Part shown: positions 814-20,773 of the stretch, one piece after another | Layout of the letters: each line of letters begins with the position of its first letter | Numbering within the stretch: position 1 is the stretch's first letter | Assembly: GCF_046105845.1 (NCBI RefSeq) | Contig: NZ_CP151004.1 | Reading direction: 5' to 3' (one strand) | Source: Escherichia coli | GTDB lineage: Bacteria; Pseudomonadota; Gammaproteobacteria; Enterobacterales; Enterobacteriaceae | Length of the DNA stretch: 64,000 nt | Made by a program: the position numbers and the translations under genes | The notes under the pieces: model-generated | Databases searched by the model: none | Told to the model about the DNA's origin: nothing | Seen by the model: the letters and a program-made list of their open reading frames with translations, nothing else

Positions 814-1683
814 TCAAAACAGGTCGTTTAGCATAACTCCCACACCAACGCGGGTCTGGTTGAAGTTATAGTCGATGAGCGATTCGCCGTAACCACTGTA
901 AACCTGAGTATAAAGGCGCACATGTTTGGTGATCGGGTAACTTAAGCCTAACTCCGCACCACCGTAACCGGTGTTCCAGTTGTACTGCCCTTTCGCGCTC
1001 AGTACCGCATCACTGAGGTGATAGCCGATTTTAAGCTGGTAATAGCCCATATATTTGGTGATGTCCGGGTTATCGTCCGTATTCCCCACCACATACCACG
1101 GCTTCACCTCTACCAGCCAGTTACCGTTTTCTGCCATCAGGCGGGTATAAAGGCGGTTCCAGCTGCGGGAAGTCGGGTCTGAACGCCCGTTTGAGTCGTG
1201 GTTATAACCCATCTCCACATCGCGCAGCGTCCAACCTGCAAAACGGTAATCGGTGGCAAAACCGAGGAACAATTGCGGTTCGTAGTTGGTTTCACGAAAC
1301 GGTGAAGACTCTTCGCTATTGGACAGTTGCCACCAGGATTTTTGCGTATAAGACGCACCCAATACCGAGTTCGGGCCTAAAATCCCACGCCACAGCGGAA
1401 ATGCCAGGCTCAACTGAAACTTTACTTCATCCTTACGCGCATTTTCCGCCCAGTCGTAACTGGCAATCGCTTCTTTGTTCAGATCGCTGGTTTGGGTGTA
1501 GATGAGGTAGTTGGTGTCATAAGGATAGAGCGTGAACGGATTGTCATGCTCCTGCAGCATATTGGCGATAATACTGCCACGCACCGCAGGCGCGTCATGC
1601 ACCTCTTTCACCGTTGCCTCTTGTGCATATACTGCCATAGGCAACATAAACACCGGCAACAACCAGCCCTGCAGAGTCCGCAT
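814..1683 (-). CDS. pldA: Outer-membrane phospholipase A
   Basis: 289-aa ORF whose sequence (MRTLQGWLLPVFMLPMAVYAQEATVKEVHDAP...) matches E. coli PldA in length and content; signal peptide present. Confidence 0.95.
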   Translation of the reverse strand: MRTLQGWLLPVFMLPMAVYAQEATVKEVHDAPAVRGSIIANMLQEHDNPFTLYPYDTNYLIYTQTSDLNKEAIASYDWAENARKDEVKFQLSLAFPLWRGILGPNSVLGASYTQKSWWQLSNSEESSPFRETNYEPQLFLGFATDYRFAGWTLRDVEMGYNHDSNGRSDPTSRSWNRLYTRLMAENGNWLVEVKPWYVVGNTDDNPDITKYMGYYQLKIGYHLSDAVLSAKGQYNWNTGYGGAELGLSYPITKHVRLYTQVYSGYGESLIDYNFNQTRVGVGVMLNDLF

Positions 1684-1847
1684 CGGTCGTGTTCTCCGTA
1701 ACGAATTATTGATAAGGTGAATATTTTTCTGCGGGCTATTTTACATACTTAACTCCATAGCCGTTAGTTATCCCTTCCTAAAGTAGAAACCAACAACAAA
1801 GAAGCATAAAATCAACATTTCATTAACTAATGAAGTGTAAGGATGAT

Positions 1848-2315
1848 ATGTCTGCCGTACTGACCGCTGAACAAGCCCTGAAATTAGTGGGTGAGATGTT
1901 TGTTTATCACATGCCATTTAACCGCGCATTGGGGATGGAACTGGAGCGTTACGAAAAAGAGTTCGCACAGCTGGCCTTTAAAAATCAGCCAATGATGGTG
2001 GGTAACTGGGCGCAAAGCATTTTGCACGGCGGAGTCATTGCGTCGGCGCTGGATGTCGCCGCCGGTCTGGTGTGCGTGGGAAGTACCTTAACCCGCCACG
2101 AAACCATCAGTGAAGATGAACTACGCCAGCGGCTATCGCGGATGGGGACCATTGATCTTCGCGTTGATTATCTGCGCCCAGGCAGGGGCGAGCGTTTTAC
2201 TGCTACCAGTAGTCTGTTGCGGGCAGGCAATAAAGTCGCCGTCGCCCGCGTTGAATTACACAATGAAGAACAGCTTTATATTGCCAGCGCTACAGCCACC
2301 TATATGGTAGGTTGA
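1848..2315 (+). CDS. yigI: PaaI/hotdog-fold acyl-CoA thioesterase family protein
   Basis: ORF 1830..2315; I chose the internal ATG at 1848 ([12 protein letters not shown]..., 155 aa) to match the YigI length. Syntenic between pldA and rarD. Confidence 0.8.
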
Positions 2316-2366
2316 TAACGTAAAAGCAGGTAAACTGCTGTTACCAATTAAAAATGAGTATTCCCG

Positions 2367-3257
2367 ATGGATGCAAAACAAACGCGGCAGGGCGTATTAC
2401 TCGCTCTTGCCGCTTATTTTATTTGGGGTATTGCGCCAGCGTACTTCAAGCTGATTTACTACGTGCCCGCCGATGAGATCCTGACGCATCGCGTGATCTG
2501 GTCGTTTTTCTTTATGGTGGTGCTGATGAGCATTTGCCGCCAGTGGTCCTATTTAAAAACGCTGATTCAGACGCCACAGAAAATTTTTATGCTGGCAGTC
2601 TCTGCCGTGCTGATTGGTGGCAACTGGCTACTGTTTATCTGGGCGGTGAACAATCACCATATGCTGGAAGCGAGCCTTGGTTACTTTATTAACCCGCTGG
2701 TGAACATTGTGCTGGGGATGATTTTCCTCGGCGAGCGATTCCGCCGGATGCAATGGCTGGCGGTGATTCTGGCAATATGTGGCGTGTTGGTTCAGTTGTG
2801 GACTTTTGGTTCACTGCCGATTATCGCGCTGGGGCTGGCGTTTAGTTTTGCCTTCTACGGCCTGGTACGCAAGAAGATTGCTGTTGAAGCGCAAACCGGC
2901 ATGTTAATCGAAACTATGTGGTTGCTGCCCGTGGCGGCGATTTACCTGTTTGCTATTGCCGACAGCTCAACCAGCCATATGGGGCAAAACCCGATGTCAC
3001 TGAATTTACTGCTGATCGCCGCCGGGATTGTCACTACCGTACCGCTGTTGTGTTTTACTGCGGCTGCGACACGCCTGCGTCTCTCAACGTTAGGCTTTTT
3101 TCAGTACATTGGCCCGACGCTGATGTTCCTGCTGGCTGTGACGTTTTATGGTGAAAAACCGGGTGCCGATAAGATGGTGACCTTCGCCTTTATTTGGGTG
3201 GCGCTGGCAATTTTTGTGATGGATGCGATTTATACGCAGCGTAGAACGTCCAAATAA
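2367..3257 (+). CDS. rarD: EamA/DMT-family inner-membrane transporter RarD
   Basis: 296-aa ORF, highly hydrophobic with multiple predicted TM segments; matches RarD length and synteny. Confidence 0.9.
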   Translation: MDAKQTRQGVLLALAAYFIWGIAPAYFKLIYYVPADEILTHRVIWSFFFMVVLMSICRQWSYLKTLIQTPQKIFMLAVSAVLIGGNWLLFIWAVNNHHMLEASLGYFINPLVNIVLGMIFLGERFRRMQWLAVILAICGVLVQLWTFGSLPIIALGLAFSFAFYGLVRKKIAVEAQTGMLIETMWLLPVAAIYLFAIADSSTSHMGQNPMSLNLLLIAAGIVTTVPLLCFTAAATRLRLSTLGFFQYIGPTLMFLLAVTFYGEKPGADKMVTFAFIWVALAIFVMDAIYTQRRTSK

Positions 3258-3291
3258 AAAATAAATATATTCTGAAAAAATATGCCGACTC

Positions 3292-3693
3292 TTGCATGAG
3301 AGTGGGCATATTGCCATGCTGACAGGAGACTCACATAAGAAAGGCAGAATTTCCAGACGTCGTTGTATATTTTCATTTGCTTTAATAAATTTCATTTTTG
3401 CCTTTCTTATTATCTTTTTTAACGATGGGGACGCAGGTTTTCTTGTTATTGTCTCTACCAACGCACTCCATTATCTCGTCATCAACATAAATTGCCAACG
3501 ACTCCGTGATAGTGGTTTCATATATATAAAAACTTATGTTTTTGGTACATTAGCAGTATATATCATCTCTATCATCACAATGATAGCCGAACATTTTGAT
3601 TGTTCAGGCAATGGTTCGATGATTTTTTTGATTTGTTATTTTTCCACTTTCAGTATGCTAATGCTTGCACCTACTGATTCATCAAAACAATAG
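3292..3693 (+). CDS. yigG: Small inner-membrane protein YigG; true start may be the internal Met at 3316
   Basis: 133-aa ORF, AT-rich with hydrophobic segments, lying between rarD and yigF as in E. coli. Confidence 0.6.
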
Positions 3694-3706
3694 TTATGGA
3701 GTATTT

Positions 3707-4087
3707 ATGAGTAAGGAATATATGAACGATGGTTCATTAAGTGAAAAATGGAAATACCGATTTAATTTTTATGATCAACATGGCTTTCCTGGATTCTGGG
3801 GGGCAACACCAGAATATAAAGCAGCATTTAAAACATTAAAAGTAAGACAACGATTAACTATTCAAATGAATTTCATTGCTTTCTTCTGTTCCTGGATCTA
3901 TTTATTTGTTCTGGGATTATGGAAAAAAGCAATTATAGTTCTATTACTTGGCATTCTATCTCTATTTGTTGGTGCACTAATTGGCGTTAACATTCTGGGA
4001 ATTGCCGTAGCAGCCTATGTTGCTGTTAACACGAACAAATGGTTTTATGAGAAAGAGGTAAAAGGGTTAAATACCTGGAGCCTTTGA
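3707..4087 (+). CDS. yigF: Small inner-membrane protein YigF (DUF2628-like)
   Basis: ORF 3665..4087; internal ATG at 3707 (MSKEYMNDGSLSEKWKYRF..., 126 aa) is preceded by a GGAG Shine-Dalgarno at 3698-3701. Two hydrophobic helices. Confidence 0.65.
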   Translation: MSKEYMNDGSLSEKWKYRFNFYDQHGFPGFWGATPEYKAAFKTLKVRQRLTIQMNFIAFFCSWIYLFVLGLWKKAIIVLLLGILSLFVGALIGVNILGIAVAAYVAVNTNKWFYEKEVKGLNTWSL

Positions 4088-4093
4088 ATAACA

Positions 4094-4129
4094 GGTGGCT
4101 TAGCCAGGCTAAGCCACCGCCTTCTTTTT
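4094..4129. terminator. Bidirectional rho-independent terminator between the convergent yigF and corA genes
   Basis: Inverted repeat GGTGGCTTAGCC / GGCTAAGCCACC followed by CTTCTTTTT. Confidence 0.55.
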
Positions 4130-5078
4130 ACAGCCAGTTCTTGCGCTTAAAGTACAGATACGGTGCCAGGCCCGCGAGGATCATAAAGATAATCGCGCCA
4201 GGGTAGCCGAAACTCCACTTCAGTTCCGGCATAAACTCAAAGTTCATCCCGTAGCTGGAAGCAACCAGCGTTGGCGGCAGGAACACGACGGATACCACCG
4301 AGAAGATTTTGATGATGCGGTTCTGCTCGATGTTGATAAAGCCCATCGCCGCCTGCATCAGGAAGTTCACCTTCTGGAACAGAGATTCGTTATGCGGCAG
4401 CAGGGATTCGATATCTCGCAGGATTTCACGCGCCTGCTCCAGCTGCCCGCCCGGTAAACGCGCCTTACGCACCAGGAAGTTGAGCGCACGCTGGGTATCC
4501 ATCAGACACAGGCGAACTTTCCAGCCGATATCTTCCAGTTCCGCCAGCGTGGAGAGCGCCTCGTCGTACTCATCGCCCTGATGCCCTTCCATAATTACCC
4601 GGCTCAACTGCTCCAGGTCGCTGTAGATATTTTCAATTTCATCTGCCAACTGTTCGATTTTGGTTTCGAACAGATCCAGCAGCAGCTCGTAGGCGTTACC
4701 GTCCACCATTGACTGGCTACGGGCACGCATACGATACAGACGGAATGCAGGCAGTTCACGCTCACGCAGAGTAAACAGACGACCATCACGGATGGTAAAT
4801 GCCACAGTGGAGTTACCGGCGTGATCTTCCGCATCTTCAAAGAAGAAGAAGGAGTGAATATGCAGGCCGTCATCGTCTTCAAAGAAACGTGCCGATGCTT
4901 CGATGTCTTCCAGTTCCGGGCGGGTTGCCAGGCTCTGACCAAGTTCAGATTGTACGCGCAGTCGCTCGTCGTCGTCCGGTTCGACAAGATCAATCCATAC
5001 TGCATTTACAAGGGGTTGTGACTCTTCGACTTCCAGCCGGGTCAGTCGGTTATTTTCCAGTTGAAATGCGCTCAGCAT
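4128..5078 (-). CDS. corA: Magnesium/cobalt transport protein CorA
   Basis: ORF 4128..5093; internal ATG at 5076-5078 gives the 316-aa protein [16 protein letters not shown]..., with the GMNF motif and two C-terminal TM helices. Confidence 0.95.
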
Positions 5079-5447
5079 GACCGGGACTCCCAATGCTTAA
5101 AATATCGGACAGTTCGGTGGGCACACAGAAACAAATTGGGTTTCAGACCATTAAACAGCCTGACTCAGCGCGACGGGAAAAATTGAGGTCGCTGACAACC
5201 GCTAAGGCTATCAGCAAAAAGGGATAGCCTTAGGAGTTGATCCTGGATGACAGGATAGTGAGCCAGTATCTACTGGGTGTGTCCAAGGCGAATGTCCTCT
5301 TAGAGTGATCGTGCGCGCATGTTACGCCAGCAAAATTTTGCCGTCAACACGCAACAGAACACCACAGAACAATAGTTGAACTTCGCGCTTTTTGGTACTC
5401 GTCAAGGTCGCTAACAGGATAAAAAAATCCCACATCCAGGACCTATA

Positions 5448-6212
5448 ATGGCGCATCGGCTACTCATTGGTAAAGGAATGATCACCTTGAATCTCAAACG
5501 GATTTTTCTCACCCTCACCTTACTTCCCTTATTTGCTGTTGCCGCTGATGATTGCGCACTCTCAGATCCGGCGCTGACCGTACAGGCGTATACCGTTAAT
5601 CCTCAAACAGAGCGGGTGAAAATGTACTGGCAAAAAGCCAATGGCGAAGCGTGGGGAACGTTACATGCTCTGCTGGCGGATATTAATAGTCAGGGTCAGG
5701 TGCAGATGGCAATGAACGGCGGCATCTATGATGAAAGCTATGCGCCGCTCGGTTTGTACATCGAAAACGGTCAGCAGAAGGTGGCGTTAAATCTCGCTTC
5801 AGGTGAAGGGAATTTCTTTATTCGTCCTGGCGGCGTGTTTTATGTCGCGGGAGATAAAGTCGGCATCGTTCGTCTGGATGCCTTTAAAACCAGTAAAGAG
5901 ATTCAGTTTGCGGTGCAGTCAGGGCCAATGTTATTAGAAAACGGCGTAATTAATCCGCGTATTCATCCCAACGTCGCCTCACGTAAAATTCGTAACGGTG
6001 TTGGGATTAATAAACAAGGGAACGCCGTGTTTTTGTTGAGCCAGCAGGCGACAAATTTTTATGATTTTGCCTGTTATGCCAAAGCGAAACTGAACGTTGA
6101 GCAGTTGCTTTATCTTGATGGCACAATTTCACATATTTATATGAAAGGCGGGGCAATCCCGTGGCAACGCTATCCTTTTGTCACCATGATTTCCGTCGAG
6201 CGGAAAGGTTAA
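5448..6212 (+). CDS. yigE: DUF2233 (phosphodiester-glycosidase-like) protein with an N-terminal signal peptide
   Basis: 254-aa ORF matching YigE in length; hydrophobic N-terminus LKRIFLTLTLLPLFAVAADD; syntenic next to corA. Confidence 0.8.
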   Translation: MAHRLLIGKGMITLNLKRIFLTLTLLPLFAVAADDCALSDPALTVQAYTVNPQTERVKMYWQKANGEAWGTLHALLADINSQGQVQMAMNGGIYDESYAPLGLYIENGQQKVALNLASGEGNFFIRPGGVFYVAGDKVGIVRLDAFKTSKEIQFAVQSGPMLLENGVINPRIHPNVASRKIRNGVGINKQGNAVFLLSQQATNFYDFACYAKAKLNVEQLLYLDGTISHIYMKGGAIPWQRYPFVTMISVERKG

Positions 6213-6294
6213 GCATTATACACTCGAGGAGGCCAGACAAACTGGGACTGGCTACACAGCTGGAAAATCATCAGATAAATGAAGGGAAACAAAA

Positions 6295-7197
6295 ATGAAA
6301 AAAACGCTCGCAACGTTATTTTTATTAACGTGTCTGGGATCATCATCCGCCTATGCGGATAACGCTTTGATTTTACAAACTGATTTTAGCCTGAAAGATG
6401 GTGCCGTCTCGGCGATGAAAGGGGTCGCATTCGGCGTTGACCATAATCTTAAAATCTTTGATTTAACACACGAAATTCCACCGTATAACATCTGGGAAGG
6501 CGCTTATCGCCTGTATCAGACTGCCAGTTACTGGCCGCAAGGTTCGGTGTTTGTTAGCGTGGTCGATCCGGGCGTAGGCACTGACCGTAAATCGGTAGTG
6601 CTGAAAACCAAAAACGGTCAGTACTTCGTTTCACCAGATAACGGTACGCTCACTTTGGTGGCACAAACTCTGGGTATTGATAGCGTCCGGGAAATCGACG
6701 AAAAAGCTAACCGCCTGAAAGGTTCTGAAAAGTCATATACCTTCCACGGTCGTGACGTGTATGCCTACACCGGTGCGCGTCTGGCTTCCGGGGCGATTAC
6801 GTTCGAACAGGTGGGGCCAGAGCTTCCTGCAAAAGTTGTCGAACTTTCTTATCAGAAAGCAAAAGCAACAAAAGGTGAAGTGAAGGGCAATATCCCGATT
6901 CTCGATATTCAGTACGGCAACGTCTGGAGCAATATCAGCGACGAGTTGCTGAATCAGGCAGGAATCAAACTCAACGACACGTTGTGTGTGACCATTTCCG
7001 AAGGTTCCCAGCAAAAATACGCAGGGAAAATGCCGTATGTCGCAAGTTTCGGCGATGTGCCGGAAGGCCAGCCGATGGTGTATCTGAACAGCTTATTGAA
7101 TGTTTCCGTGGCGCTGAATATGGATAATTTCGCGCAGAAACATCAGGTTGCATCTGGTGCTGACTGGAATATTGATGTGAAGAAGTGCGCTAAGTAA
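6295..7197 (+). CDS. DUF62 / S-adenosyl-L-methionine hydroxide adenosyltransferase-family protein with a predicted Sec signal peptide
   Basis: 300-aa ORF. N-terminus MKKTLATLFLLTCLGSSSAYA is a typical signal peptide. Mature region carries what I recall as the DUF62 hallmarks: ILQTDFSLKDGAVSAMKGV, VVDPGVGTDRK, SPDNGTL and TFHGRDVYAYTG. Preceded by a purine-rich RBS. Confidence 0.8.
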   Translation: MKKTLATLFLLTCLGSSSAYADNALILQTDFSLKDGAVSAMKGVAFGVDHNLKIFDLTHEIPPYNIWEGAYRLYQTASYWPQGSVFVSVVDPGVGTDRKSVVLKTKNGQYFVSPDNGTLTLVAQTLGIDSVREIDEKANRLKGSEKSYTFHGRDVYAYTGARLASGAITFEQVGPELPAKVVELSYQKAKATKGEVKGNIPILDIQYGNVWSNISDELLNQAGIKLNDTLCVTISEGSQQKYAGKMPYVASFGDVPEGQPMVYLNSLLNVSVALNMDNFAQKHQVASGADWNIDVKKCAK

Positions 7198-7205
7198 GGG
7201 GCTGA

Positions 7206-7236
7206 TGCGGAATGCGGTGTGGCGCACCGCATTCCG
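7206..7236. terminator. Perfect 13-bp-stem hairpin between the convergent DUF62 gene and uvrD; probable bidirectional terminator
   Basis: GCGGAATGCGGTG - TGGCG - CACCGCATTCCGC read directly from the sequence. No strong T-run follows. Confidence 0.4.
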
Positions 7237-7241
7237 CAACG

Positions 7242-9404
7242 TCACACCGTCTCCAACCGGGCGTAAGCCGCCACCAGCCATTTAATACCCTGGCCCTGGA
7301 ACGCCACCTGCAAACGGCTATGCTCACCGCTGCCTTCCATATTGACGATGGTGCCTTCACCAAACTTAGCGTGGCGTACGCGCTGGCCGAGCTTGTAGCT
7401 GCTGTCGTTCTCGACCATCGGCGTACCCATCCGTTGATGGCTGACCGGGCGGCTTACCGTGGCGCGCAGGCGCACCTCTTCCACACACTCTTCCGGCAGC
7501 TCGCCGATAAAGCGCGACGGGCGATGGTAAACCTCTTTGCCATACAAACGGCGAGTTTCCGCGTAGGTCAGCGTCAGTTTCTGCATCGCGCGGGTTACGC
7601 CAACGTAGGCCAGACGGCGTTCTTCTTCCAGACGTCCGCCTTCATCCAGCGACATCTGGCTTGGGAACATGCCTTCTTCCATACCAACGATAAACACCTG
7701 CGGGAACTCCAGCCCTTTCGCCGAGTGTAGCGTCATCAACTGCACCGCATCCTGCCAGGTATCCGCCTGCCCCTCGCCCGCTTCCAGTGCCGCATGGGAG
7801 AGGAACGCCTGCAGCGGCATTAAATCTTCGTCTTCTTCGTTGTAGCTGAACTGGCGCGTCGCCGTCACCAGTTCCTCTAAGTTTTCGATACGCGTCTGTC
7901 CTTTTTCGCCCTTCTCCTGCTCGTACATGGTGCGCAGGCCGGAGTCTTTAATGACCCGGTCAGTCTGTACATGCAGCGGCATATCGGCAGTTTCCTGCGC
8001 TAAGGCGTCGATCAGTTCCATAAACCGTTGCAAGGCACTGGCAGCACGTCCGGCGAGGGCTTTTTCCTGCAACAGTTCACGACATGCCTGCCAGAGTGTT
8101 AACTGACGATCGCGCGATGTCTGACGTACCACGTCCAGCGTCCGGTCACCAATACCCCGCGTTGGCGTATTCACCACGCGCTCAAAGGCCGCGTCGTCGT
8201 TGCGGTTGGCAATCAGGCGCAGATATGAGAGCGCGTCTTTGATTTCCTGACGTTCGAAGAAGCGCATCCCGCCGTAAATACGGTACGGCATACTCGCCTG
8301 CAACAGTGCTTCTTCCAGCACGCGCGACTGGGCGTTGCTGCGGTAGAGAATGGCGCACTCGGCGAGCGCCCCGCCGTTGTCCTGCCAGGTCTTGATACGG
8401 TTAACCACAAAACGCGCTTCGTCGAGTTCGTTAAAAGCGCAATAGAGGGAAATCGGCTCACCGTCCGCGCCATCGGTCCACAGTTTTTTACCCAGACGCC
8501 CGTTGTTGTTTTCAATCAGGGCGTTAGCGGCGCTCAGAATATTGCTGGTAGAGCGGTAGTTTTGCTCCAGACGAATAGTTTCGGCACCGGGGAAATCATT
8601 AAGGAAACGCTGAATATTCTCCACCTGCGCCCCGCGCCAGCCGTAGATTGACTGGTCGTCATCGCCAACGATCATCACTTTGCCGGTGTCGCCCGCCAGC
8701 AGGCGGATCCACGCGTACTGAATGTTGTTGGTATCCTGGAATTCGTCCACCAGGATGTTAGTAAAACGTTCGCGGTAGTGTTGCAGGATATGCGGCTTGT
8801 TAAGCCACAACTCGTGAGCACGTAGCAGCAGCTCGGCGAAGTCCACCAGGCCCGCGCGGTCACACGCTTCCTGATACGCCTGATACACCTTCTGCCAGGT
8901 CTGCTCCACCGGATTACCGTAGCTTTGAATATGATGTGGACGCAGGCCTTCATCTTTCTGGCTGTTGATGTACCACATTGCCTGGCGCGGCGGCCACTGC
9001 TTCTCGTCGAGGTTCATCGCCTTGATTAGGCGTTTGAGCAGGCGTAGCTGGTCCTCGCTGTCGAGGATCTGAAAATCCTGCGGCAGATTGGCGTCCATAT
9101 GGTGCGCACGCAGCAGACGGTGCGCCAGCCCGTGGAAGGTGCCGACCCACATGCCGCCCTGGCTGGTGCCCATCAGCTGCCCGATACGATGACGCATCTC
9201 CGCCGCCGCTTTGTTGGTAAACGTTACCGCCATAATCGAGTATGGCGAGCAGTTTTCCACGCTCATCAGCCAGGCGATACGATGCACCAATACGCGCGTC
9301 TTACCACTGCCCGCGCCCGCCAGCACCAGAAGGTTGCTGCGTGGCGCGGCCACCGCTTCGCGCTGTTTGTCATTAAGGCTGTCGAGCAGGTAAGAAACGT
9401 CCAT
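7242..9404 (-). CDS. uvrD: DNA helicase II (UvrD)
   Basis: ORF 7242..9590; internal ATG at 9402-9404 yields the 720-aa protein [38 protein letters not shown]... with Walker A. Confidence 0.95.
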   Translation of the reverse strand: MDVSYLLDSLNDKQREAVAAPRSNLLVLAGAGSGKTRVLVHRIAWLMSVENCSPYSIMAVTFTNKAAAEMRHRIGQLMGTSQGGMWVGTFHGLAHRLLRAHHMDANLPQDFQILDSEDQLRLLKRLIKAMNLDEKQWPPRQAMWYINSQKDEGLRPHHIQSYGNPVEQTWQKVYQAYQEACDRAGLVDFAELLLRAHELWLNKPHILQHYRERFTNILVDEFQDTNNIQYAWIRLLAGDTGKVMIVGDDDQSIYGWRGAQVENIQRFLNDFPGAETIRLEQNYRSTSNILSAANALIENNNGRLGKKLWTDGADGEPISLYCAFNELDEARFVVNRIKTWQDNGGALAECAILYRSNAQSRVLEEALLQASMPYRIYGGMRFFERQEIKDALSYLRLIANRNDDAAFERVVNTPTRGIGDRTLDVVRQTSRDRQLTLWQACRELLQEKALAGRAASALQRFMELIDALAQETADMPLHVQTDRVIKDSGLRTMYEQEKGEKGQTRIENLEELVTATRQFSYNEEDEDLMPLQAFLSHAALEAGEGQADTWQDAVQLMTLHSAKGLEFPQVFIVGMEEGMFPSQMSLDEGGRLEEERRLAYVGVTRAMQKLTLTYAETRRLYGKEVYHRPSRFIGELPEECVEEVRLRATVSRPVSHQRMGTPMVENDSSYKLGQRVRHAKFGEGTIVNMEGSGEHSRLQVAFQGQGIKWLVAAYARLETV

Positions 9405-9452
9405 TGGCACCGCCGCGTAAAAATAGGTTGGGCGGAGAAGCGCAACGCCCTC

Positions 9453-9468
9453 CGCCAAAAAGCTGGGT
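9453..9468 (-). promoter_or_regulatory. LexA (SOS) box in the uvrD promoter
   Basis: Minus-strand sequence ATCTGTATATATACCCAGCT fits the CTGT-N8-ACAG consensus and sits about 50 bp upstream of the uvrD start. Confidence 0.75.
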
Positions 9469-9487
9469 ATATATACAGATTTGCTGA

Positions 9488-10204
9488 TTATATCAGCGAG
9501 GTCAGAGATGCCAACCGGGAAATTTCCAGATGCGGGAGTAAACGGCTGTCCCAGGTTTGCATCAGATCGCCATTTTCCGGTCTGATCCAACAGGCCTGCA
9601 TTCCGCTGCGAATTGCCCCACCCACGTCAGTGGTGAGATCATCCCCGACATGTAAGATCTCGCCGATCGGCACGTTGAGTTTTTCCGCCGCCAGGAAGTA
9701 CATATCGCTGAACGGTTTTGAGCGCCCGTGCGGGCCAGCACGCAGCACAAACTCAAAATAATCCCCCAAACCAAACAGTTCCGGCTGGGCGTTACCGTTG
9801 GTGATCGCCACCAGCGGCCATTTCTTCGCCAGCTGTTTTAAGGTGTCGTGGGTTTGCTGCGGGACATCGATTCGGCTGCGCCATTTGGCAAAGTTGATCA
9901 TTGCTGCGTGTGCGCCTGCACTGGCTTCTTCGGCACTCAGCCCGGCGTCGAGCATGGCTTGTTCAATCGAACGAAAACGCCAGCGCGTCACGTCGTGATA
10001 AATCTCGGGTTCCGCTTCCCGTACCGCCTGGCGCAGGCGTTGCAGATCTTCATTCTGGAAGCTGCGCAGCGCCGGATGATAATTTTGCACAAAGGTAAGC
10101 GCCTCTCGCTCGGTGCGCAAAATCACCGGACGGTTATCGTAAAGGGTATCATCCAGGTCAAAGGTGAGCGCCGAGATGCGCCTCAAAGGCCGGTAAAAAC
10201 GCAT
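9488..10204 (-). CDS. yigB: HAD-family phosphatase YigB (5-amino-6-(5-phospho-D-ribitylamino)uracil phosphatase)
   Basis: 238-aa ORF with the HAD motif FDLDDTLYD near the N-terminus; last gene of the dapF-yigA-xerC-yigB cluster. Confidence 0.9.
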
Positions 10205-11100
10205 TATTTCCCCCGTTTGGCGCGTGGATGCGCCGCATCGTACACCGAGGCAAGGTGTTGAAAATCAAGATGAGTATAGATTTGCGTGGTGGAGAGGTTG
10301 GCATGACCCAGCAGCTCCTGCACACCACGAAGTTCGCCGCTCGACTCCAGCATATGCGTAGCGAACGAGTGACGTAATTTATGCGGGTGAACGTGATTAT
10401 TCAGCCCTTGTTTGATGCCCCATTCGGCAAAGCGTTTCTGCACATTACGCGCGGAGATACGCTTGCCCAGTTTCGACAGAAAAAGCGCGTCGTCTTCGCT
10501 ACCAAACAGGTCGCGCAAATCAAGCCAGTGCTCAATCCACGCCACAGCGTTGCGACCAATCGGCAGGCGGCGCTCTTTGCTGCCTTTTCCCATCACCCAC
10601 ACTTCACCAGACTCCAGGTCGAGGTGTTTGATATCGAGCCCCACCAGTTCGGAAAGACGCAGACCCGCGCCGTACATCACTTCCAGCATTGCCCGATCGC
10701 GCACGGCGAGGGGATCGTTGATATCAATATCCAGCAGCCGATTCATATCATCGACGTCGATGTTTTTCGGCAGATGACGCGGCGCTTTCGGTGCCGAAAC
10801 ACCTTTCGCCGGGTTGGCTTTGAGTTCGTTCTGGCTGACCAGCCAGTCAAAAAAGCTACGTAGCGCAGAAAGCCGTAACGCCAGACTTGCAGCTCCCAGC
10901 CCTTTACGGCGACTGCGTACAGCGAAATTGCGCACCATCGTCACATCACATTGCTGCCAGCTTTGCAGGCCGTTTTCACTGGCAAAATTGATGATCGCCT
11001 CAAGCTGACGCTGATAGTTAAGCAGGGTTATCGGGCTAAGCTGACGCTCCACGCTCAGATAACGTAGGTAGCGTTCTACATCGGTGTGTAAATCGGTCAT
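10204..11100 (-). CDS. xerC: Tyrosine site-specific recombinase XerC (chromosome dimer resolution)
   Basis: 298-aa [36 protein letters not shown]... with C-terminal [12 protein letters not shown]...Y catalytic residues; chromosomal synteny. Confidence 0.95.
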
Positions 11101-11804
11101 ACGCGTTCAATCCAACGCTCCAGAAGCTCCGGCAACATCAGCGCAATTTCATGAAGTAACTGCGTTCCCTGCCCTTGTTGATAGTGACTGGCATCGCGAC
11201 TAGTAAACAGCACAACACCCAAATCAGCATCGCTTCCCAGCATCGACATCGCCACCGATCCCACCGCTTTCGCTTCCGGTAGCACCACCAGAAGCTCCGG
11301 TCCGTTAAGCGGCCCCAGATAGTGCTGTTCCTGCCCCAGACGCTGAATACGCAGCGGTTCGAAAGACTGACGGCTTAATGCCAGATAAGTGTGGTTCGAC
11401 GGCGCACCTAAGCGCCAGCGATCCGGAAACAGGCGCAGACTCGCACCTGCCAGCCCTAAATCACGCGCCCAGCGATGGAAACGCATCAGCATATCGTCGA
11501 GACTACTGGCGGCGGTGAGACTGCGCTGCAGGTAGAGTAGACGATAAAACAGGCCTTCGTTGGCGATTGCCTGTTCCATCAACAGCGCCATGTTCTCTTC
11601 CAGAACATGAATATGATTACGTGCGCGGGCCATGTGCCACTCGACCAACGAAACGGTGCCGCGTACCGGATGCGGCACACGTATCGCTTCTACTGCGCGC
11701 GCATTGCGGATAAAAAACTCAGGATTTTTAATCAGATAATCGACAACCGCCCGGTCATCAAGCTCCGTGAGTGTTTCCTGCAGTTCTTCCCCTGGTTGCT
11801 TCAT
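11097..11804 (-). CDS. yigA: DUF484-family protein YigA
   Basis: 235-aa ORF overlapping dapF and xerC by 4 nt at each end, indicating translational coupling. Confidence 0.85.
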
Positions 11805-12625
11805 AGATGAATAAATCCGTCGTAGACATGTACCGCCGGGCCAGTCATATATAACGGGTGACCCGGACCTTTCCAGGCGATATCAAGACGACCGCCAGGG
11901 AGTTCCACGCGTACTTCTTCGGCCAGCAAACCTTGCTGAATCCCTACCGCCACCGCCGCACACGCGCCGCTGCCGCAGGCCTGGGTTTCTCCTGCCCCAC
12001 GCTCATAAACGCGTAAACGAATATGCTCGCGCTTAACCACTTGCATAAAACCGATATTGGCGCGCTCCGGAAAACGCTCGTGGCTTTCCAGAACAGGACC
12101 AAGCGTTTCTACCGCCGCGGTATCGACATCATCGACCTGAATCACGCAATGCGGATTTCCCATCGACACCACGCCGCATAAGATTGTCTGCTCGGCGGCG
12201 CGCATAATATAGGTCTTTTCCGCTTTGTTAGCGCGAAACGGCACGGCGGAAGGTTCGAAGTTGGGCTCGCCCATGTTTACGCGAACCAGATCATCATCGG
12301 TGACGGTCAGAACCATCCGCCCGTTGGCGGTGCTGACGCGGATATCGCGCTTATTGGTCAGCCCTTTCAGGCGCACAAAACGGGCAAAGCAGCGTGCGCC
12401 GTTGCCGCACTGCGCCACTTCACTGCCATCAGCATTGAAAATGCGATAGTGAAAATCCAGTTCAGGATCATACGGTGGCTCAACCACCAGCAGTTGGTCA
12501 AACCCTACCCCCAGGTGCCGATCCGCCAGGCGACGAATCAGCTCCGGTGAAAAAAAGACATTCTGCGTTACCGCGTCGACGACCATAAAATCGTTGCCAA
12601 GGCCATGCATTTTCGAGAACTGCAT
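11801..12625 (-). CDS. dapF: Diaminopimelate epimerase
   Basis: ORF 11801..12628; second Met gives the 274-aa protein [18 protein letters not shown]... with both catalytic Cys motifs (GNGARC, GSGACA). Confidence 0.95.
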
Positions 12626-12661
12626 CATTTACTCCAATCACGCGGGTACAGAAACTGACTT

Positions 12662-12865
12662 TTAGTAATTCACCTGGGATGGACCATCGCCAGTGGCGCG
12701 GTCGTTTTTATCCGGCACTGTGGATTGCGTTTGCGTCTCTACCGATTTGGTCGGCGGCGGTGCGTTTTTATCTGCAGGCGGGAAATAGAGCGGACCTTTC
12801 AGACCGCAGCCCGTCAGGCTGAAGAGAGTAAGTAATACAGTGAGTGCCTTAAACACGTTTTTCAT
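12662..12865 (-). CDS. lptM: Small lipoprotein YifL (LptM)
   Basis: 67-aa ORF MKNVFKALTVLLTLFSLTGCG... with a lipobox (LTGC). Confidence 0.8.
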   Translation of the reverse strand: MKNVFKALTVLLTLFSLTGCGLKGPLYFPPADKNAPPPTKSVETQTQSTVPDKNDRATGDGPSQVNY

Positions 12866-13334
12866 TATGGATTGCCTGTAAAGTTCATCGCTTTCTGCTT
12901 TCTATCATCGCAGGAGAAGGCGTAAAAGCAAGCGTTTAGCGACTCTTTATGAAGTCTGAAAAATGAGGAAATACTGCGAGTATAACGCTTACACGTGGCG
13001 ATTTATGTTTTGCTGGTAGTTTCGTGATCGTCACCTCGCGCCAGGATGGCTTTATGCACTATCGCAATGTGATTTCTTTGTTGGCTTGTTCGTTGTTTTT
13101 ATCGTCGGCATGGGGATGTCGGCTTGATGAGCCTGAACATAATATTTACCAGAAACAGGGAAAAGGCGTGGTGTATTTGCACCCTTATGAAAAGACCAAT
13201 CTTTCGCTATATAGAGACATTATTATTCCGTTGACAGATGAATCATGCCGGAACGCAGCCGCAGAGGTGCAAACTTTGAAGCCCTGACCCCATGCCGCTA
13301 TACTGCCGCCATCACTTAAAAACAGGATACAACA

Positions 13335-13655
13335 ATGAACGACAGTGAATTTCATCGCCTGGCTGATCAACTCTGGCTGACCATTGAAGAGCGTCTGGAC
13401 GACTGGGATGGCGATAGCGATATCGACTGCGAAATCAACGGCGGTGTACTGACCATTACCTTTGAGAACGGTAGCAAAATCATTATCAACCGTCAGGAAC
13501 CGCTGCACCAGGTGTGGCTGGCAACCAAACAGGGCGGCTACCATTTTGATATGAAAGGCGATGAGTGGATTTGCGATCGTAGCGGCGAAACCTTCTGGGA
13601 TTTGCTGGAACAGGCGGCAACGCAGCAAGCGGGTGAAACAGTCAGTTTCCGCTAA
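13335..13655 (+). CDS. cyaY: Frataxin homolog CyaY (iron-sulfur cluster assembly)
   Basis: 106-aa [66 protein letters not shown]... Confidence 0.9.
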
Positions 13656-13694
13656 TATTACATGCCGGATAAGCTTCGCTTTCCGGCACGCTCA

Positions 13695-16241
13695 TCACGA
13701 AAAATACTGCTGTAATAGCGGCGTATCGTGATCCTGATTGGCAGGCGGCATGTTGCCAATCGATTTGGTGCGGAACGGAATCACCTGTTCACGACCATCA
13801 ACCTTCACAATCTGATAGAACTGCGGCAGGTTGAAGTTGATGAAGCTTGAGCCGTAGGTAAAACGGTCGTGCGATGACGAGTAGAAGCGACTGACGTCAC
13901 GCACCAGCTCCTCTTTGCTGCCTTCGCAGTGGTGATACACCTCAACCCGGTTGCTTTCGTCGAGAATGTAGATATTAAAGCCATTCTCGTCTTGCGTTTC
14001 TTCGAAGAAGAACTGGATGATCCCTTCGCTGGCAAAGCCGTCCACCACCGCCGGTAATTTGACGTGATTGGTTTCAACCTGCACTGACAGGCCGTGCAGT
14101 TTGTTATGCGAAATAGCGCCATAAAACTCGATGGCATTTTCTAGTTTCTGTACCGATACATTCAGGCGCTCGAAGAATAAGCCCCAGGTTTGACCAGAAA
14201 CGCGCAGCGCCTTGAAGCGCCCGGTTTCATGGCGGGTGCTGGAAAGACGCAGTTCAATGCACTCAGAAACCAGTTGCTGCACGCGAGTACGGATTAATCC
14301 GCGCAGATGCTGGCTGTAGCAGAAGACTTCCACGCTATCTGGCGGTGCGGCGTCCTGATGCATTTTACCGAGAATGGTTTTCAGGGCTTCGATCATCGAC
14401 TGCTCGCCGTTGAAGTGCAACGTACGCACTTCGTTCCACGAGTTGCGGTACAGCAGGTCCACGCTACCTACCAGGCAATTTTGATTCTCGCCAAAGCTGA
14501 AGACGTCCAGCTTACGGAAATCAAAATGCACCACCTGATTGCGGAACGCAGCTGTCGGGTCATATTCCAGGTTAACGATAATCGCCAGATGGCGAATTTC
14601 ACACGGGCTGTAGAGCGCTTTTGGCGTCGGTGCAGGCAGGCGCAGCGGGAAATGGTGTGACACATCGGCGACCATCTCCTGCAACTTAGGCAAATCGACA
14701 ATGCCGTTGCCTTTAATATACAAGCGGGTACGCGAGGTCAGCAGGCCGTTAAACCATGCCCACGCCACCAGTTTATTCAGGTAACGGTTATATTCCAGCG
14801 GCTGATGGCTGATGATCGACTCAATATTTGGCGCGCGGTTATACAGATACCAACCTGAACGGTTAGCCCGGCCCGGCGGCACATAAATAAAGGTCAGATT
14901 CGGTTCCGAGAGATCGGGTGAAATCTGCGGGTTTACCAGCGTCACTTTACCCGGCAATGCTTCAAACGCGGCATACAGCTTACGCGTCAGCACGCCGATA
15001 TCCTGCGGACTGGCGGAGACGCTAAGGTTATTGCGGCGCGCAAAGCGAATCAGATTACGGTAGCTCTGCATCATCGCGTCGAGCAACTCGTTGTGCGCCT
15101 CACGTACCTGATCAATCTTCCAGTTAGCGCGGTTATCGAGCATTGCCAGACGAGCATCGTCCCATTCCCACTCTTTCACTAACTGGGTTAGCACTTCACG
15201 ACGCCAGCCTACGCAGGCGCGTTCACGGCTGAGTTTTTCGCACACTTTTAAATAGAAGCAGCGGCGTACTAAATCCAGACGGGTGAAATCTTCAATCGCC
15301 GTCAGGTATTCAGTAACACGCTCCAGCATCATGCAGTAAGGATCGAGGCCAAACGACACAATCTCGCCGTCGTGCAAACGCTGTTTGATATCTTTCGCCA
15401 GCAGACGTGGGTTCGGGTATTCCCAGGAATAGGCTTCCAGCAGCAGTGTTTTCAGCACCGCTTTGTATGGGGAATCGATACTCTTGTAGAGCTGCCAAAG
15501 GCTGGCACCAAAGTACTCTTCAGCAGAAAGCGAGCTTAAGCCACCGAGATCCAGCCATTCATTTGGCGTCAGCACGCCCTGCGCGTAAAGCGTCATCACA
15601 TAGTCGTCGTAATGCTCTTCTTCGTCGCACGGCACCATATTCCACAGAATACGCTTACCAGCGAGACGCACGGCGGTACGGTAAAATTCGTCAAGCAGCA
15701 GTATATGCTGGGTGGAGCCACAATCTTCGCCCCCCAGGCTGCCGCTTTCATTATGACGGAAGCGGTTTTCATCAATCAGGAAGAAGCTAACTTCCACGCC
15801 CAGCGAGGCGGCCCAGCTTTCCAGCAGGCTGCATTTACGTTGTAGTAACTGGCGCTCTTCGCTATCAAGCCAGGATTGATGACAGACCCAGATATCCAGG
15901 TCAGAGGAACAACTTTGCCCTACGGACGAGGTGCTGCCCATGGTGTATACACCAGTAATTGGAAGCTCACCTTTCGGCGGATCCTGTACTGACATTCCAC
16001 GATACAGTTCAAGCTCGTTCAGGTAGTGGCGTTGAGTTTCATCAGGCGTGTAAAGGCAAATGCCTTTGGGAACGTTACCATCAAGGTAACCCGGCATTAG
16101 CGGATGGTGATAGTGCAACAATGTCGGCAGTAGACTGTAGACCTGTTGGAATGCAGGCCCCATAGCAGCAAGCGCGCGATCCACACGCAATTGATTTATG
16201 GCATCCAGTCTCTGTTTCAGAGTCTCAATATAGAGGTACAA
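13695..16241 (-). CDS. cyaA: Class I adenylate cyclase
   Basis: 848-aa ORF; the first codon on the minus strand is TTG (complement of 16239-16241), consistent with the known non-ATG start of cyaA. Confidence 0.95.
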
Positions 16242-16627
16242 GACGTATCGCCTGATTTGCTACCCGTCATGACTGTGATTCCGCCAACATCAACGGTAAC
16301 ACGCGGCATTCGGGATATTTCGTATGTCAAAGGTAACCGTTACCACTTTTCGCGCCTGGTTTTTTTAGTTTCACGACGAAAAAATGGTCTAAAACGTGAT
16401 CAATTTAACACCTTGCTGATTGACCGTAAAGAAAGATGCGCTACATACAAGTGTAGCACCGTTTATTCTCTGTAAATTCCTTATTACGACGGCGTGAAAC
16501 GCCTGTCAGGATCCACTGCCAGACCTCATTTTACGGTTTGCGCAGGCGTCTACGTTTCACCACAACACTGACATCGCTCTGGCAAGGATGTTAGGATGGA
16601 CCACGGATGATAATGACGGTAACAAGC

Positions 16628-17569
16628 ATGTTAGACAATGTTTTAAGAATTGCCACACGCCAAAGCCCACTTGCACTCTGGCAGGCACACTATGTCAAAG
16701 ACAAGTTGATGGCGAGCCATCCGGGCCTGGTCATTGAACTGGTACCGATGGTGACGCGCGGCGATGTGATTCTTGATACGCCGCTGGCGAAAGTAGGCGG
16801 AAAAGGCTTATTTGTAAAAGAGCTGGAAGTCGCGCTCCTCGAAAATCGCGCCGATATCGCCGTACATTCAATGAAAGATGTGCCGGTTGAATTCCCGCAA
16901 GGTCTGGGGCTGGTCACTATTTGCGAGCGTGAAGATCCTCGCGATGCCTTTGTGTCCAATAACTATGACAGTCTGGATGCGTTACCGGCAGGCAGTATCG
17001 TCGGGACGTCCAGTTTACGTCGCCAGTGCCAACTGGCTGAACGCCGCCCGGATCTGATTATCCGCTCCCTGCGCGGCAACGTCGGCACTCGCCTGAGCAA
17101 ACTGGATAACGGCGAATACGATGCCATCATTCTTGCCGTAGCCGGACTAAAACGTTTAGGTCTGGAGTCACGCATTCGCGCCGCGTTGCCACCCGAGATT
17201 TCTCTTCCGGCGGTAGGACAAGGTGCGGTGGGCATTGAATGCCGCCTTGATGATACACGCACTCGCGAGCTGCTTGCCGCGCTGAATCACCACGAAACTG
17301 CACTGCGCGTTACCGCAGAACGCGCCATGAATACCCGTCTCGAAGGCGGATGTCAGGTGCCAATTGGTAGCTACGCCGAGCTTATTGATGGCGAAATCTG
17401 GCTGCGTGCGCTGGTCGGCGCGCCGGACGGTTCGCAGATTATTCGCGGTGAACGCCGCGGTGCGCCGCAAGATGCCGAACAAATGGGGATTTCGCTGGCA
17501 GAAGAGCTACTGAATAACGGCGCGCGCGAGATCCTTGCTGAAGTCTATAACGGAGACGCCCCGGCATGA
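16628..17569 (+). CDS. hemC: Porphobilinogen deaminase (hydroxymethylbilane synthase)
   Basis: ORF 16607..17569; ATG at 16628 gives the 313-aa protein [20 protein letters not shown]... Confidence 0.95.
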
Positions 17570-18306
17570 GTATCCTGGTCACCCGCCCGTCTCCCGCTGG
17601 AGAAGAGTTAGTGAGCCGTCTGCGCACACTGGGGCAGGTGGCCTGGCATTTTCCGCTGATTGAGTTTTCTCCGGGTCGACAATTACCGCAACTTGCTGAT
17701 CAACTGGCAGCGCTGGGGGAGAGGGATCTGTTGTTTGCCCTCTCGCAACACGCGGTTGCTTTTGCCCAATCACAGCTGCATCAGCAAGATCGTAAATGGC
17801 CCCGACTACCTGATTATTTCGCCATTGGACGCACCACCGCACTGGCGCTACATACCGTAAGCGGACAGAAGATTCTCTACCCACAGGATCGGGAAATCAG
17901 CGAAGTCTTGCTACAATTACCTGAATTACAAAATATTGCGGGCAAACGTGCGCTGATATTACGTGGCAATGGCGGTCGTGAGCTAATTGGGGATACCCTG
18001 ACGGCGCGCGGTGCTGAGGTCACTTTTTGTGAATGTTATCAACGATGCGCAATCCATTACGATGGTGCAGAAGAAGCGATGCGCTGGCAATCCCGCGAGG
18101 TGACGACGGTCGTTGTTACCAGCGGTGAAATGTTGCAGCAACTCTGGTCGCTGATCCCACAATGGTATCGTGAGCACTGGTTACTACGCTGTCGACTATT
18201 GGTCGTCAGTGAGCGTTTGGCGAAACTCGCCCGGGAACTGGGCTGGCAAGACATTAAGGTCGCCGATAACGCTGACAACGATGCGCTTTTACGGGCATTA
18301 CAATAA
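17566..18306 (+). CDS. hemD: Uroporphyrinogen-III synthase
   Basis: 246-aa ORF overlapping the hemC stop by 4 nt (ATGA). Confidence 0.9.
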
Positions 18307-18327
18307 CTCTCATAACAGGAAGCCATA

Positions 18328-19527
18328 ATGACGGAACAAGAAAAAACCTCCGCCGTGGTTGAAGAGACCAGGGAGGCCGTGGACACCACGTCACAACCTG
18401 TCGCAACAGAAAAAAAGAGTAAGAACAATACCGCATTGATTCTCAGCGCGGTGGCTATCGCTATTGCTCTGGCGGCGGGCGTCGGTTTGTATGGCTGGGG
18501 TAAACAACAGGCCGTCAATCAGACCGCCACCAGCGATGCCCTGGCTAACCAACTTACGGCACTGCAAAAAGCCCAGGAGAGCCAAAAAGCCGAGCTGGAA
18601 GGCATTATCAAGCAACAAGCTGTACAGCTTGAGCAGGCGAATCGTCAGCAAGAAACGCTGGCAAAACAGCTGGATGAAGTCCAACAAAAGGTCGCGACTA
18701 TTTCCGGCAGCGATGCTAAAACCTGGCTGCTGGCTCAGGCTGATTTCCTGGTGAAACTCGCCGGACGGAAGCTGTGGAGCGATCAGGACGTCACGACCGC
18801 TGCAGCGTTGCTGAAAAGTGCAGACGCCAGCCTGGCGGATATGAATGACCCGAGTCTGATTACCGTTCGTCGGGCAATTACCGATGATATCGCCAGCCTT
18901 TCTGCGGTATCGCAGGTGGATTATGACGGCATCATCCTTAAGCTTAATCAGCTTTCAAATCAGGTAGATAACCTGCGTCTGGCTGATAATGACAGCGATG
19001 GTTCGCCGATGGATTCCGACGGTGAAGAGCTTTCCAGTTCCATCAGCGAATGGCGTATCAATCTGCAAAAAAGCTGGCAGAACTTTATGGACAACTTCAT
19101 TACGATTCGCCGTCGTGATGACACCGCCGTACCACTGTTAGCGCCGAATCAGGATATCTATCTGCGCGAAAATATTCGCTCCCGCCTGCTGGTCGCGGCA
19201 CAAGCCGTACCGCGTCATCAGGAAGAGACTTATCGCCAGGCGCTGGAGAATGTCTCCACTTGGGTACGTGCTTACTACGATACTGATGATGCCACCACCA
19301 AAGCGTTCCTCGACGAGGTGGACCAGTTAAGCCAGCAAAATATCTCGATGGATCTCCCGGAAACCCTGCAAAGCCAGGCGATGCTGGAAAAACTGATGCA
19401 GACTCGCGTGCGTAACCTGCTGGCACAACCGGCAGCGGGGACAACGGAAGCTAAACCTGCACCTGCACCTGCACCTGCACCTGCACCGCAAGCTGATACT
19501 CCGGCAGCCGCGCCGCAAGGAGAATAA
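18328..19527 (+). CDS. hemX: HemX (inner-membrane protein; uroporphyrinogen-III methyltransferase-like annotation)
   Basis: 399-aa ORF with a single N-terminal TM segment, coiled-coil region and a Pro-Ala-rich C-terminus. Confidence 0.9.
19456..19485 (+). repeat. Perfect tandem hexanucleotide repeat (CCTGCA)x5 inside hemX, encoding (Pro-Ala)5
   Basis: Read directly: aaa CCTGCA CCTGCA CCTGCA CCTGCA CCTGCA ccg caa. Confidence 0.9.
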
Positions 19528-19529
19528 CC

Positions 19530-20726: not shown

Positions 20727-20773
20727 TTCTTTCTCACCCGGAGGCAAGCACCTCCGGGACCTTTCTGATACAT

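Follow-up and report, generated by a model that had tools for sequence, protein, structure and literature searches.

What kind of locus is the pair of AT-rich genes, yigG and yigF, that separates rarD from corA in Escherichia coli: a conserved part of the chromosome, a silenced relic, a recent import, or a cassette that some lineages carry and others discard? A preliminary description of the 64-kb stretch of DNA analysed here (the window) had presented the two genes as neighbouring reading frames of about 126 codons, conserved in E. coli and functionally uncharacterised, whose low GC content hinted at an older horizontal origin or at regulation by H-NS. That the genes exist, are AT-rich and are silenced in K-12 is already on record. 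The description is partly supported, being right on silencing and foreign-like composition and wrong on conservation.

The explanation favoured here, and held to be probable, is that yigG-yigF represents an operon within a multi-allelic island, specifying a conditionally expressed and dispensable membrane complex of YigG and YigF with a role at the envelope or cell surface. The components of this explanation differ in strength: the anatomy and evolutionary history of the pair, taken alone, are put forward with high confidence, and the formation of a YigG-YigF complex acting on the envelope is proposed only tentatively.

Layout and composition of the rarD-corA interval

The interval corresponds in locus, gene order and flanks to that of K-12, where yigG is b3818 and yigF is b3817, annotated by RefSeq/PGAP as 'protein YigG' and 'DUF2628 domain-containing protein' (Table 1). 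Family models confirm the identity of both genes. YigG of the window scores 224.2 bits (E 5e-67) against NCBIfam NF008474, the YigG equivalog, for which the curated cut-off is 217 bits; YigF scores 40.7 bits (E 3.4e-10) against Pfam DUF2628 (PF10947), covering profile positions 9-91 of 93, with a gathering threshold of 23. The placement of the pair between rarD and corA is likewise secure, the flanks having been identified by Pfam EamA and RefSeq annotation of homologous loci.

Table 1. Coordinates of genes and sequence features at the rarD-corA slot and around it; positions refer to the window
Feature	Position	Strand	Basis or remark
pldA	814-1683	-	gene order as annotated in E. coli
yigI	1830-2315	+	gene order as annotated in E. 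coli
rarD (EamA-family transporter), left conserved flank	2367-3257	+	Pfam EamA; RefSeq annotation of homologous loci
AT-rich replacement island, yigG-yigF type, filling the rarD-corA slot	3258..4127		GC about 0.33-0.35
yigG, maximal ORF, 133 aa from TTG	3292..3693	+	ORF listing
yigG, deletion allele, 125 aa from ATG 3316	3316..3693	+	most plausible CDS
Junction of the 39-nt in-frame deletion in yigG	3339/3340	+	alignment vs K-12, NRZ14408 and haplotype 2
Homologue of the K-12 'yigG 1.2' intragenic-promoter fragment	3464..3613	+	PMC7229825 primers, 2-3 mismatches
yigF, maximal ORF, 140 aa from TTG	3665..4087	+	ORF listing
GGAG Shine-Dalgarno of yigF	3698-3701	+	within the 13-nt yigG-yigF spacer
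yigF, DUF2628 protein, 126 aa from ATG 3707	3707..4087	+	most plausible CDS
Hairpin terminator between the yigF and corA stop codons	4094..4118		11-bp perfect stem, 3-nt loop
corA (Mg2+/Co2+ transporter), right conserved flank	4128-5078	-	RefSeq annotation of homologous loci
ysgD, corA leader ORF	5230-5286	-	gene order as annotated in E. coli
yigE	5448-6212	+	gene order as annotated in E. coli

The position of the yigF Shine-Dalgarno within the short spacer implies that the two genes form an operon. Downstream, the hairpin contains seven G-C pairs in its stem and has a folding energy of -20.1 kcal/mol (z -3.1). On the + strand it is followed by a T-run, GCCTTCTTTT, a combination of G+C-rich hairpin and U-run that qualifies as an intrinsic (rho-independent) terminator. 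The tail on the - strand, TGTTATTCAA, is weaker, and termination of corA at this site is therefore less certain; the earlier suggestion of a terminator common to yigF and corA stands with that reservation. The hairpin is kept in Salmonella, where it shows compensatory changes. A scan of 2300-5600 against Rfam returned chance-level matches only, and a repeat search together with the ORF listing disclosed no direct repeats, mobile-element signatures, integrase or tRNA gene at the island borders.

The pair stands out sharply from its surroundings in composition. GC content is 0.339 for yigG and 0.344 for yigF, and GC3 is 0.29 and 0.28, compared with 0.532 +/- 0.024 and 0.589 +/- 0.054 across the 41 long ORFs of the window; these differences correspond to z values of about -8 and about -5.5. 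The island is also the lowest-GC 800-nt stretch within the 64 kb (0.335, the window averaging 0.524). On a codon index derived from the genes of the window itself, yigG and yigF each score 0.51, as against 0.684 +/- 0.051 for the window genes (z -3.3), 0.69 for rarD and 0.74 for corA. By GC, GC3 and codon usage alike the pair is thus clearly distinguishable from its flanks, as the preliminary description had anticipated.

Studies of K-12 provide a regulatory context for this composition. The counterpart of the pair is one of 78 'promoter islands' in that strain, extends over 663 bp, is bound by H-NS and was predicted to be foreign by two methods, those of Nakamura et al. and of Lawrence and Ochman (PMC3661553). 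K-12 yigG contains an intragenic promoter that is repressed by H-NS and depends on an AT-tract (PMC7229825), and a small, silent extended protein occupancy domain covers yigF-yigG-rarD (PMC8282354). The hint at H-NS regulation and horizontal origin agrees with these three reports: a silenced, foreign-like character is supported and is not new. Of the traits described for K-12 promoter islands and occupancy domains, two recur in the window: AT-richness and the fragment with the intragenic promoter. The high-affinity H-NS motif tCG(t/a)T(a/t)AATT, allowing up to 1 mismatch, has no match in 3258-4127, and in the whole window it is found 8 times against 14.5 expected. Binding of H-NS to the island would hence rest on general AT-richness. 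The island also differs from most H-NS-silenced islands in that it is older than the genus; H-NS binding to it is known from K-12 only.

Two membrane proteins and a deletion at the yigG start

Hydrophobic helices, which had been noted in both products, are borne out by the sequences and by AlphaFold2 models: YigG has four and YigF two to three. The model of YigG (pLDDT 89.9, pTM 0.81) places helices at residues 15-38, 42-67, 72-92 and 100-118. The positive-inside rule would place both the basic N-terminus and the conserved NCQRLRDSG loop on the cytoplasmic side. The model of YigF (pLDDT 84.2) comprises a basic N-domain of ~50 residues, then an interrupted hydrophobic stretch and a pair of long helices, and it suggests a protein with a predicted cytoplasmic N-domain followed by a hydrophobic hairpin. 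Daley and colleagues are said to have placed the C-termini of both proteins in the cytoplasm in 2005.

The affinities of YigG appear to be with DUF805, the family of E. coli YhaH/YhaI type inner-membrane proteins, which resemble it in size and in their run of hydrophobic helices. A basic N-terminal stretch, G-R/K-x-S-R-R-x-Y, and an R-L-R-D-x-G loop are common to both, and the match is co-linear, from profile positions 4 to about 95. The relationship would be a distant one. With E of 0.1 as the limit, YigG of the window has no match to Pfam DUF805 (PF05656); 11 of the 17 family members have one, the best at 3e-5. Full-length members score 17-22 bits (17.3 for K-12 YigG and 22.1 for YigG of haplotype 2, described below), short of the gathering threshold of 25.7 bits, which only a truncated fragment, P0034, surpasses with 28.6 bits. 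A search of 1.84 billion representative proteins with a YigG profile recovered 24 relatives and no ordinary DUF805 protein, so that YigG seems to be a small, separate offshoot restricted to Enterobacteriaceae. It is best described as a predicted four-helix inner-membrane protein that is only remotely DUF805-like.

YigF has a wider distribution. Its KW..RF.F and AFFF..IY.F.LGLWKK motifs, the latter ending in the LGLWKK of the window protein, recur in DUF2628 homologues of Pseudomonas, Pantoea and Betaproteobacteria. A YigG-type partner gene accompanies only the enterobacterial YigF clade: more distant DUF2628 members occur alone, and no DUF805-like gene adjoins those of Pseudomonas and Pantoea. 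For both proteins, fold searches yielded generic helical matches only, PDB sequence searches with the family profiles gave nothing significant, and PHROGs and PADLOC scans returned no match. A published listing of yigF as a 'virulence factor' (PMC11747333) was dropped, a database label being its sole basis. Both genes are indeed functionally uncharacterised, as had been stated, and their families are known only as the YigG equivalog and DUF2628.

The reported size of about 126 residues holds for yigF, which is intact in this window, and fails for yigG, which here departs from the canonical gene of 126 aa. An in-frame deletion of 39 nt has removed GATGTAAAATTTATGTTACGTATATTTATCCCAACATCT, and with it the AAGGA Shine-Dalgarno, the native ATG and the first nine codons (MLRIFIPTS). 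In Escherichia, Salmonella and Atlantibacter, yigG begins with an N-terminus of the form M-(L/S)-x-(I/V)-F-I-P-(T/S)-S, preceded by its own Shine-Dalgarno and ATG; the conservation of this segment marks the true start of the gene, which the window lacks. Residues 9-125 of the window protein accordingly align with positions 22-138 of NF008474, the N-terminal 21 positions of the model being unmatched. The K-12 pair, 96.5-96.9% identical to that of the window in DNA, keeps the 39 nt with start and Shine-Dalgarno. At the protein level, window YigF is 99% identical to its K-12 counterpart and window YigG 91% identical over the shared part. The preliminary description did not mention the deletion.

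A product of the deletion allele is nonetheless possible. The upstream ATG at 3316, preceded by only a weak purine stretch, is in frame with the remainder of the gene, and a YigG of 125 aa could therefore be made from it. Every Escherichia allele has the same ATG in frame, so that the deletion allele could still give nearly normal YigG. PGAP calls a CDS of this length, WP_409023650.1, a protein present on 2 contigs, whereas the K-12 protein is on at least 1,000. No case of the 39-nt deletion combined with an otherwise intact pair was found among 5,426 complete E. coli genomes; the identical deletion does occur in an 85-nt yigG stump in genomes where another cassette has replaced the rest. Window yigG is thus a rare deletion allele from which the native ribosome-binding site, the start and the conserved N-terminus have gone.

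Alternation and antiquity of the pair

A census of the same 5,426 genomes, in which a pair was scored as intact when 80% or more of yigG-yigF was present, does not bear out the claim that the genes are conserved in E. coli. Intact pairs occur in 2,962 genomes (55%) and are missing from the other 45%. About 2,400 of the 2,962 have 95% or more identity, and 565 belong to a second haplotype with 76.6% DNA identity. Fragments only are found in about 995 genomes, many of which keep the first 85 nt of yigG, and IS1 insertions and deletions affect the locus in some E. coli. A different AT-rich module of small membrane proteins, of the O157:H7 type, is present in 1,431 genomes. It consists of a 104-aa membrane protein encoded on the opposite strand and an unannotated 128-aa DUF805-like ORF; a kinship of the 104-aa protein with YigF was ruled out (hhalign probability 0.5%).

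A third occupant is the DUF3289/DUF943 pair, found in the slot in 2,634 genomes and directly adjoining yigGF in 299. These genes encode a colicin-M-like toxin and its immunity protein, as established by experiment, and have been proposed as a type VI effector pair (PMC11148199). They share with yigG-yigF the position between rarD and corA, a two-gene arrangement, a low GC content (0.31-0.33) and a terminator of their own next to corA. They have no sequence relationship to YigG/YigF and are absent from this window.

The borders of the alternative forms are well defined. Homology between haplotypes ends at or just before the rarD stop (the O157-type diverges at about 3246), and all rejoin exactly at the corA stop codon, each cassette carrying its own terminator hairpin. 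In the 299 stacked genomes a duplicated 147-nt fragment of the corA 3' end separates DUF3289/DUF943 from yigGF, and the stacked form in Atlantibacter includes a fragment of corA and one of rarD. Lying side by side in this way, DUF3289/DUF943 and yigGF are independent modules. The pair is, in sum, only one of a set of cassettes that replace one another between rarD and corA.

The alternation within one species is combined with a long history. The order rarD-yigG-yigF-corA is found in Salmonella Typhimurium, Kosakonia cowanii, Superficieibacter electus and Atlantibacter subterranea, and also in E. albertii, E. whittamii and two further Enterobacteriaceae. In these genomes yigG is often missed by gene callers. 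A scan of genome contigs with two peptide patterns detected at least nine loci, those of Salmonella and Kosakonia being missed by it. In one metagenomic lineage yigG-yigF follows LacI and enolase-family genes, the two frames joined by a 4-nt start/stop overlap; the spacing in relatives varies from -8 to 31 nt. The occurrence of the pair in a different context and the spacing argue for one unit with coupled expression.

Rates of substitution are consistent with this picture. Between K-12 and Salmonella, dS is 1.6-1.7 for yigG/yigF, comparable to the values of the flanking genes (1.29 for rarD, 1.10 for yigI) and consistent with vertical descent since the common ancestor of Escherichia and Salmonella. 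By synteny and dS, the pair has thus occupied this slot since before the two genera split, in line with the suggestion of an old origin. dN/dS is 0.03-0.15 for yigF and 0.14-0.37 for yigG, the comparison of window with K-12 giving 0.04 for yigF and a rise to 0.37 for yigG. The pair is inherited and moved as a unit and is kept by purifying selection.

The two E. coli haplotypes diverge deeply, with a dS of 0.70 in yigG and 1.25 in yigF compared with 0.08-0.17 in the flanks. Haplotype 2 scarcely differs from the allele of E. albertii, so that introgression is the simplest account of this divergence and dispenses with balancing selection. GC3 of yigG/yigF remains at 0.28-0.36 in Escherichia, Salmonella and Atlantibacter, where the flanks stand at 0.61-0.67, and has risen only in Kosakonia-like lineages (0.44-0.60). 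For K-12 and Salmonella alone the figures are 0.28-0.34 for the pair and 0.62-0.66 for the flanks. The AT-richness of the pair persists despite saturated dS.

Proposed role and competing explanations

The most likely mechanism runs as follows. The two-gene operon encodes two small inner-membrane proteins, YigG and YigF, which would act as an accessory, conditionally expressed membrane complex that affects properties of the envelope or cell surface. In K-12 the module is silent under a coat of H-NS and other nucleoid proteins. Being dispensable, it would have been repeatedly damaged, lost or replaced in E. coli lineages. In the window YigG would be producible only from the weakly preceded ATG at 3316. 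A Salmonella yigG mutant showed reduced attachment to produce in a single study that offers no mechanism (PMC3579871), a phenotype that hints, if weakly, at a role at the envelope or surface.

A less favourable view, which is unlikely yet the strongest of the alternatives, holds that the pair is a decaying relic: silenced foreign DNA without a present function in E. coli, of which window yigG would effectively be a pseudogene. The frequent lack of an intact pair, the IS1 insertions and deletions, and the remnant genomes, many with an 85-nt yigG start that carries the very deletion seen here, are what such decay would leave behind. The silence of the K-12 locus (PMC8282354) fits as well, as do the missing native start and the raised dN/dS of window yigG. 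Both frames are, however, intact across at least five genera with a dN/dS of 0.03-0.27 at saturated dS, and functionless sequence would not survive in this condition. The near-identity of window and K-12 YigF at low dN/dS, the in-frame nature of the yigG deletion and the survival of an in-frame ATG upstream also speak against decay. Pure decay fits window yigG and does not fit the cross-genus conservation.

The pair might also be regarded as orphan immunity-like genes, YigG/YigF and the O157-type module being small inner-membrane proteins that protect against membrane-targeting toxins of competitors, whether type VI effectors or pore-forming bacteriocins, and that frequency-dependent selection keeps polymorphic in a toxin/immunity hotspot. 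Immunity to toxins that form pores is typically conferred by small polytopic membrane proteins. This reading is improbable, and somewhat more doubtful still is its extension, that the rarD-corA slot is an old balanced 'membrane-protection' locus with YigG-YigF in its two deeply diverged haplotypes, the O157-type pair and DUF943 as alternative inner-membrane protectors against envelope-targeting toxins. The proposal draws on the company the pair keeps: a toxin and immunity pair in the same slot in nearly half of the genomes (PMC11148199), stacked beside yigGF in some E. coli and in Atlantibacter, and a third, unrelated module of small membrane proteins alternating at that position. The AT-richness of the genes and the depth of the two haplotypes relative to their flanks would suit it too. 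Against it, yigGF has no toxin gene beside it in the window, in K-12, or in Salmonella, Kosakonia or Superficieibacter; the effector and immunity tables and supplements of PMC11148199 list neither DUF805 nor DUF2628; PADLOC has no match to either protein; and dN/dS is low, not elevated. The haplotype divergence is explained by introgression from E. albertii. Were the proposal true, YigG/YigF would constitute a new immunity-type family with a toxin partner encoded elsewhere or in other species, and AT-richness with H-NS silencing would keep protective cassettes cheap until needed.

Recent horizontal acquisition by E. coli, for example as phage or plasmid cargo not yet ameliorated, would account for the strong compositional and codon deviation and for the two foreign predictions tabulated in PMC3661553, and is nevertheless very improbable: it is contradicted by the shared position in Salmonella, Kosakonia, Superficieibacter and Atlantibacter and by dS values like those of flanking core genes, and it also has against it the lack of a PHROG family match and of an integrase, tRNA gene or repeat at the island borders. 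Some tblastn matches labelled 'plasmid' or 'phage' were rejected as mobile elements, since they are mislabelled chromosomal fragments; the 'phage' matches amount to only two tiny unannotated records that carry the Salmonella chromosomal allele.

The favoured explanation of a dispensable, multi-allelic operon leaves yigG-yigF a known and ordinary feature with a modest population-genetic twist. For annotation and population genomics, the genes belong outside the E. coli core: they are one of the alternative contents of a multi-allelic slot in which a type VI effector/immunity pair is found as well. As the pair behaves as a single, ancient and selected unit, a joint function of YigG and YigF can be put to the test. 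The locus also exemplifies AT-rich DNA that has not drifted to host composition despite saturated synonymous divergence. Only three points are worth carrying forward: the polymorphism of the slot, the inheritance of yigG and yigF as a pair, and the O157-type gene of 128 codons, a DUF805-like reading frame that annotation passes over in roughly one in four complete E. coli genomes, O157:H7 among them.

Alternative modules and duplicated flanks in the rarD–corA slot

An AT-rich, O157-type module replaces yigG-yigF between rarD and corA in O157:H7 and in 1,431 of the 5,426 complete E. coli genomes. The module consists of a 104-aa membrane protein and a 128-aa DUF805-like ORF, the latter devoid of RefSeq annotation and matched by the YigG-family HMM; both genes also adjoin corA in another species (locus L031). 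Loci in which the DUF3289/DUF943 cassette is stacked with a second module have a corA 3' fragment, present in duplicate, between the two, and in the stacked form of Atlantibacter a rarD fragment is duplicated as well. These duplicated fragments look like the product of unequal recombination among alternative alleles of the slot.

A 15-nt inverted repeat is located within the slot: its first arm spans the junction of the 39-nt yigG deletion and its second arm sits at the position from which PMV-1-type genomes carry the DUF3289 cassette instead. The repeat may represent a recombination-prone structure, or else its position may be a coincidence.

Features of the slot and its surroundings, in window coordinates unless a comparison locus is named
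Feature	Location	Strand	Remarks
Inverted repeat, 15 nt	3335-3349 and 3396-3410		arms 93% complementary
yigF/corA terminator hairpin	4094-4118
Salmonella counterpart of the hairpin	L024 5390-5420
ysgD/corL leader ORF, 18 codons	5230-5286	-	upstream of corA
SAM hydroxide adenosyltransferase / SAM hydrolase family gene, 300 aa	6295-7197	+	Pfam SAM_HAT_N and SAM_HAT_C
O157-type 104-aa membrane protein	L001 (E. coli O157:H7 G5295) 3602-3916	-
O157-type 128-aa DUF805-like ORF	L001 (E. coli O157:H7 G5295) 4117-4503	+	YigG-family HMM, E 3e-10
Duplicated flank fragments at stacked cassettes (corA 3' end; in Atlantibacter also rarD)	L004 4468-4614; L009 5429-5910; L001 4528-4674

Sequences on the corA side

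The terminator hairpin between yigF and corA is retained in Salmonella through compensatory changes: the stem reads GGTGGCTTAGCC in the window versus GGTGGTTCAGCC in Salmonella, and the other arm has changed to match. In loci with the O157-type module or the DUF943 cassette, the same position beside corA is taken by a different hairpin, supplied by the module or cassette itself. The ysgD/corL leader is translated as LDTPSRYWLTILSSRINS, identical in the window and in the annotation of a K-12-type genome.

Further along, a SAM_HAT gene is interposed between yigE and uvrD. K-12 lacks this gene, yigE being followed directly by uvrD, and strain AZ161 possesses it: another presence/absence polymorphism, ∼2 kb away from yigG-yigF.

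Source lineage and database records

Identity to window positions 4100-24000 reaches at most 98.7% in every complete RefSeq E. coli genome, and the source lineage is therefore without a close relative in that collection. The chromosomal segment recQ-pldA-yigI-rarD-yigG-yigF-corA is also carried by records filed as plasmids (PLSDB NZ_CP047533.1 and NZ_CP019447.1) and as phages (OR851002.1 and OR845793.1). All four are mislabelled chromosomal fragments, which could mislead inferences on mobility. The 90%-identity cluster that accommodates the YigG and YigF of the window comprises 2,168 sequences and mixes members of both proteins. The link between them is probably made by gene calls that are fused or read through, for instance the 197-aa protein P0059.
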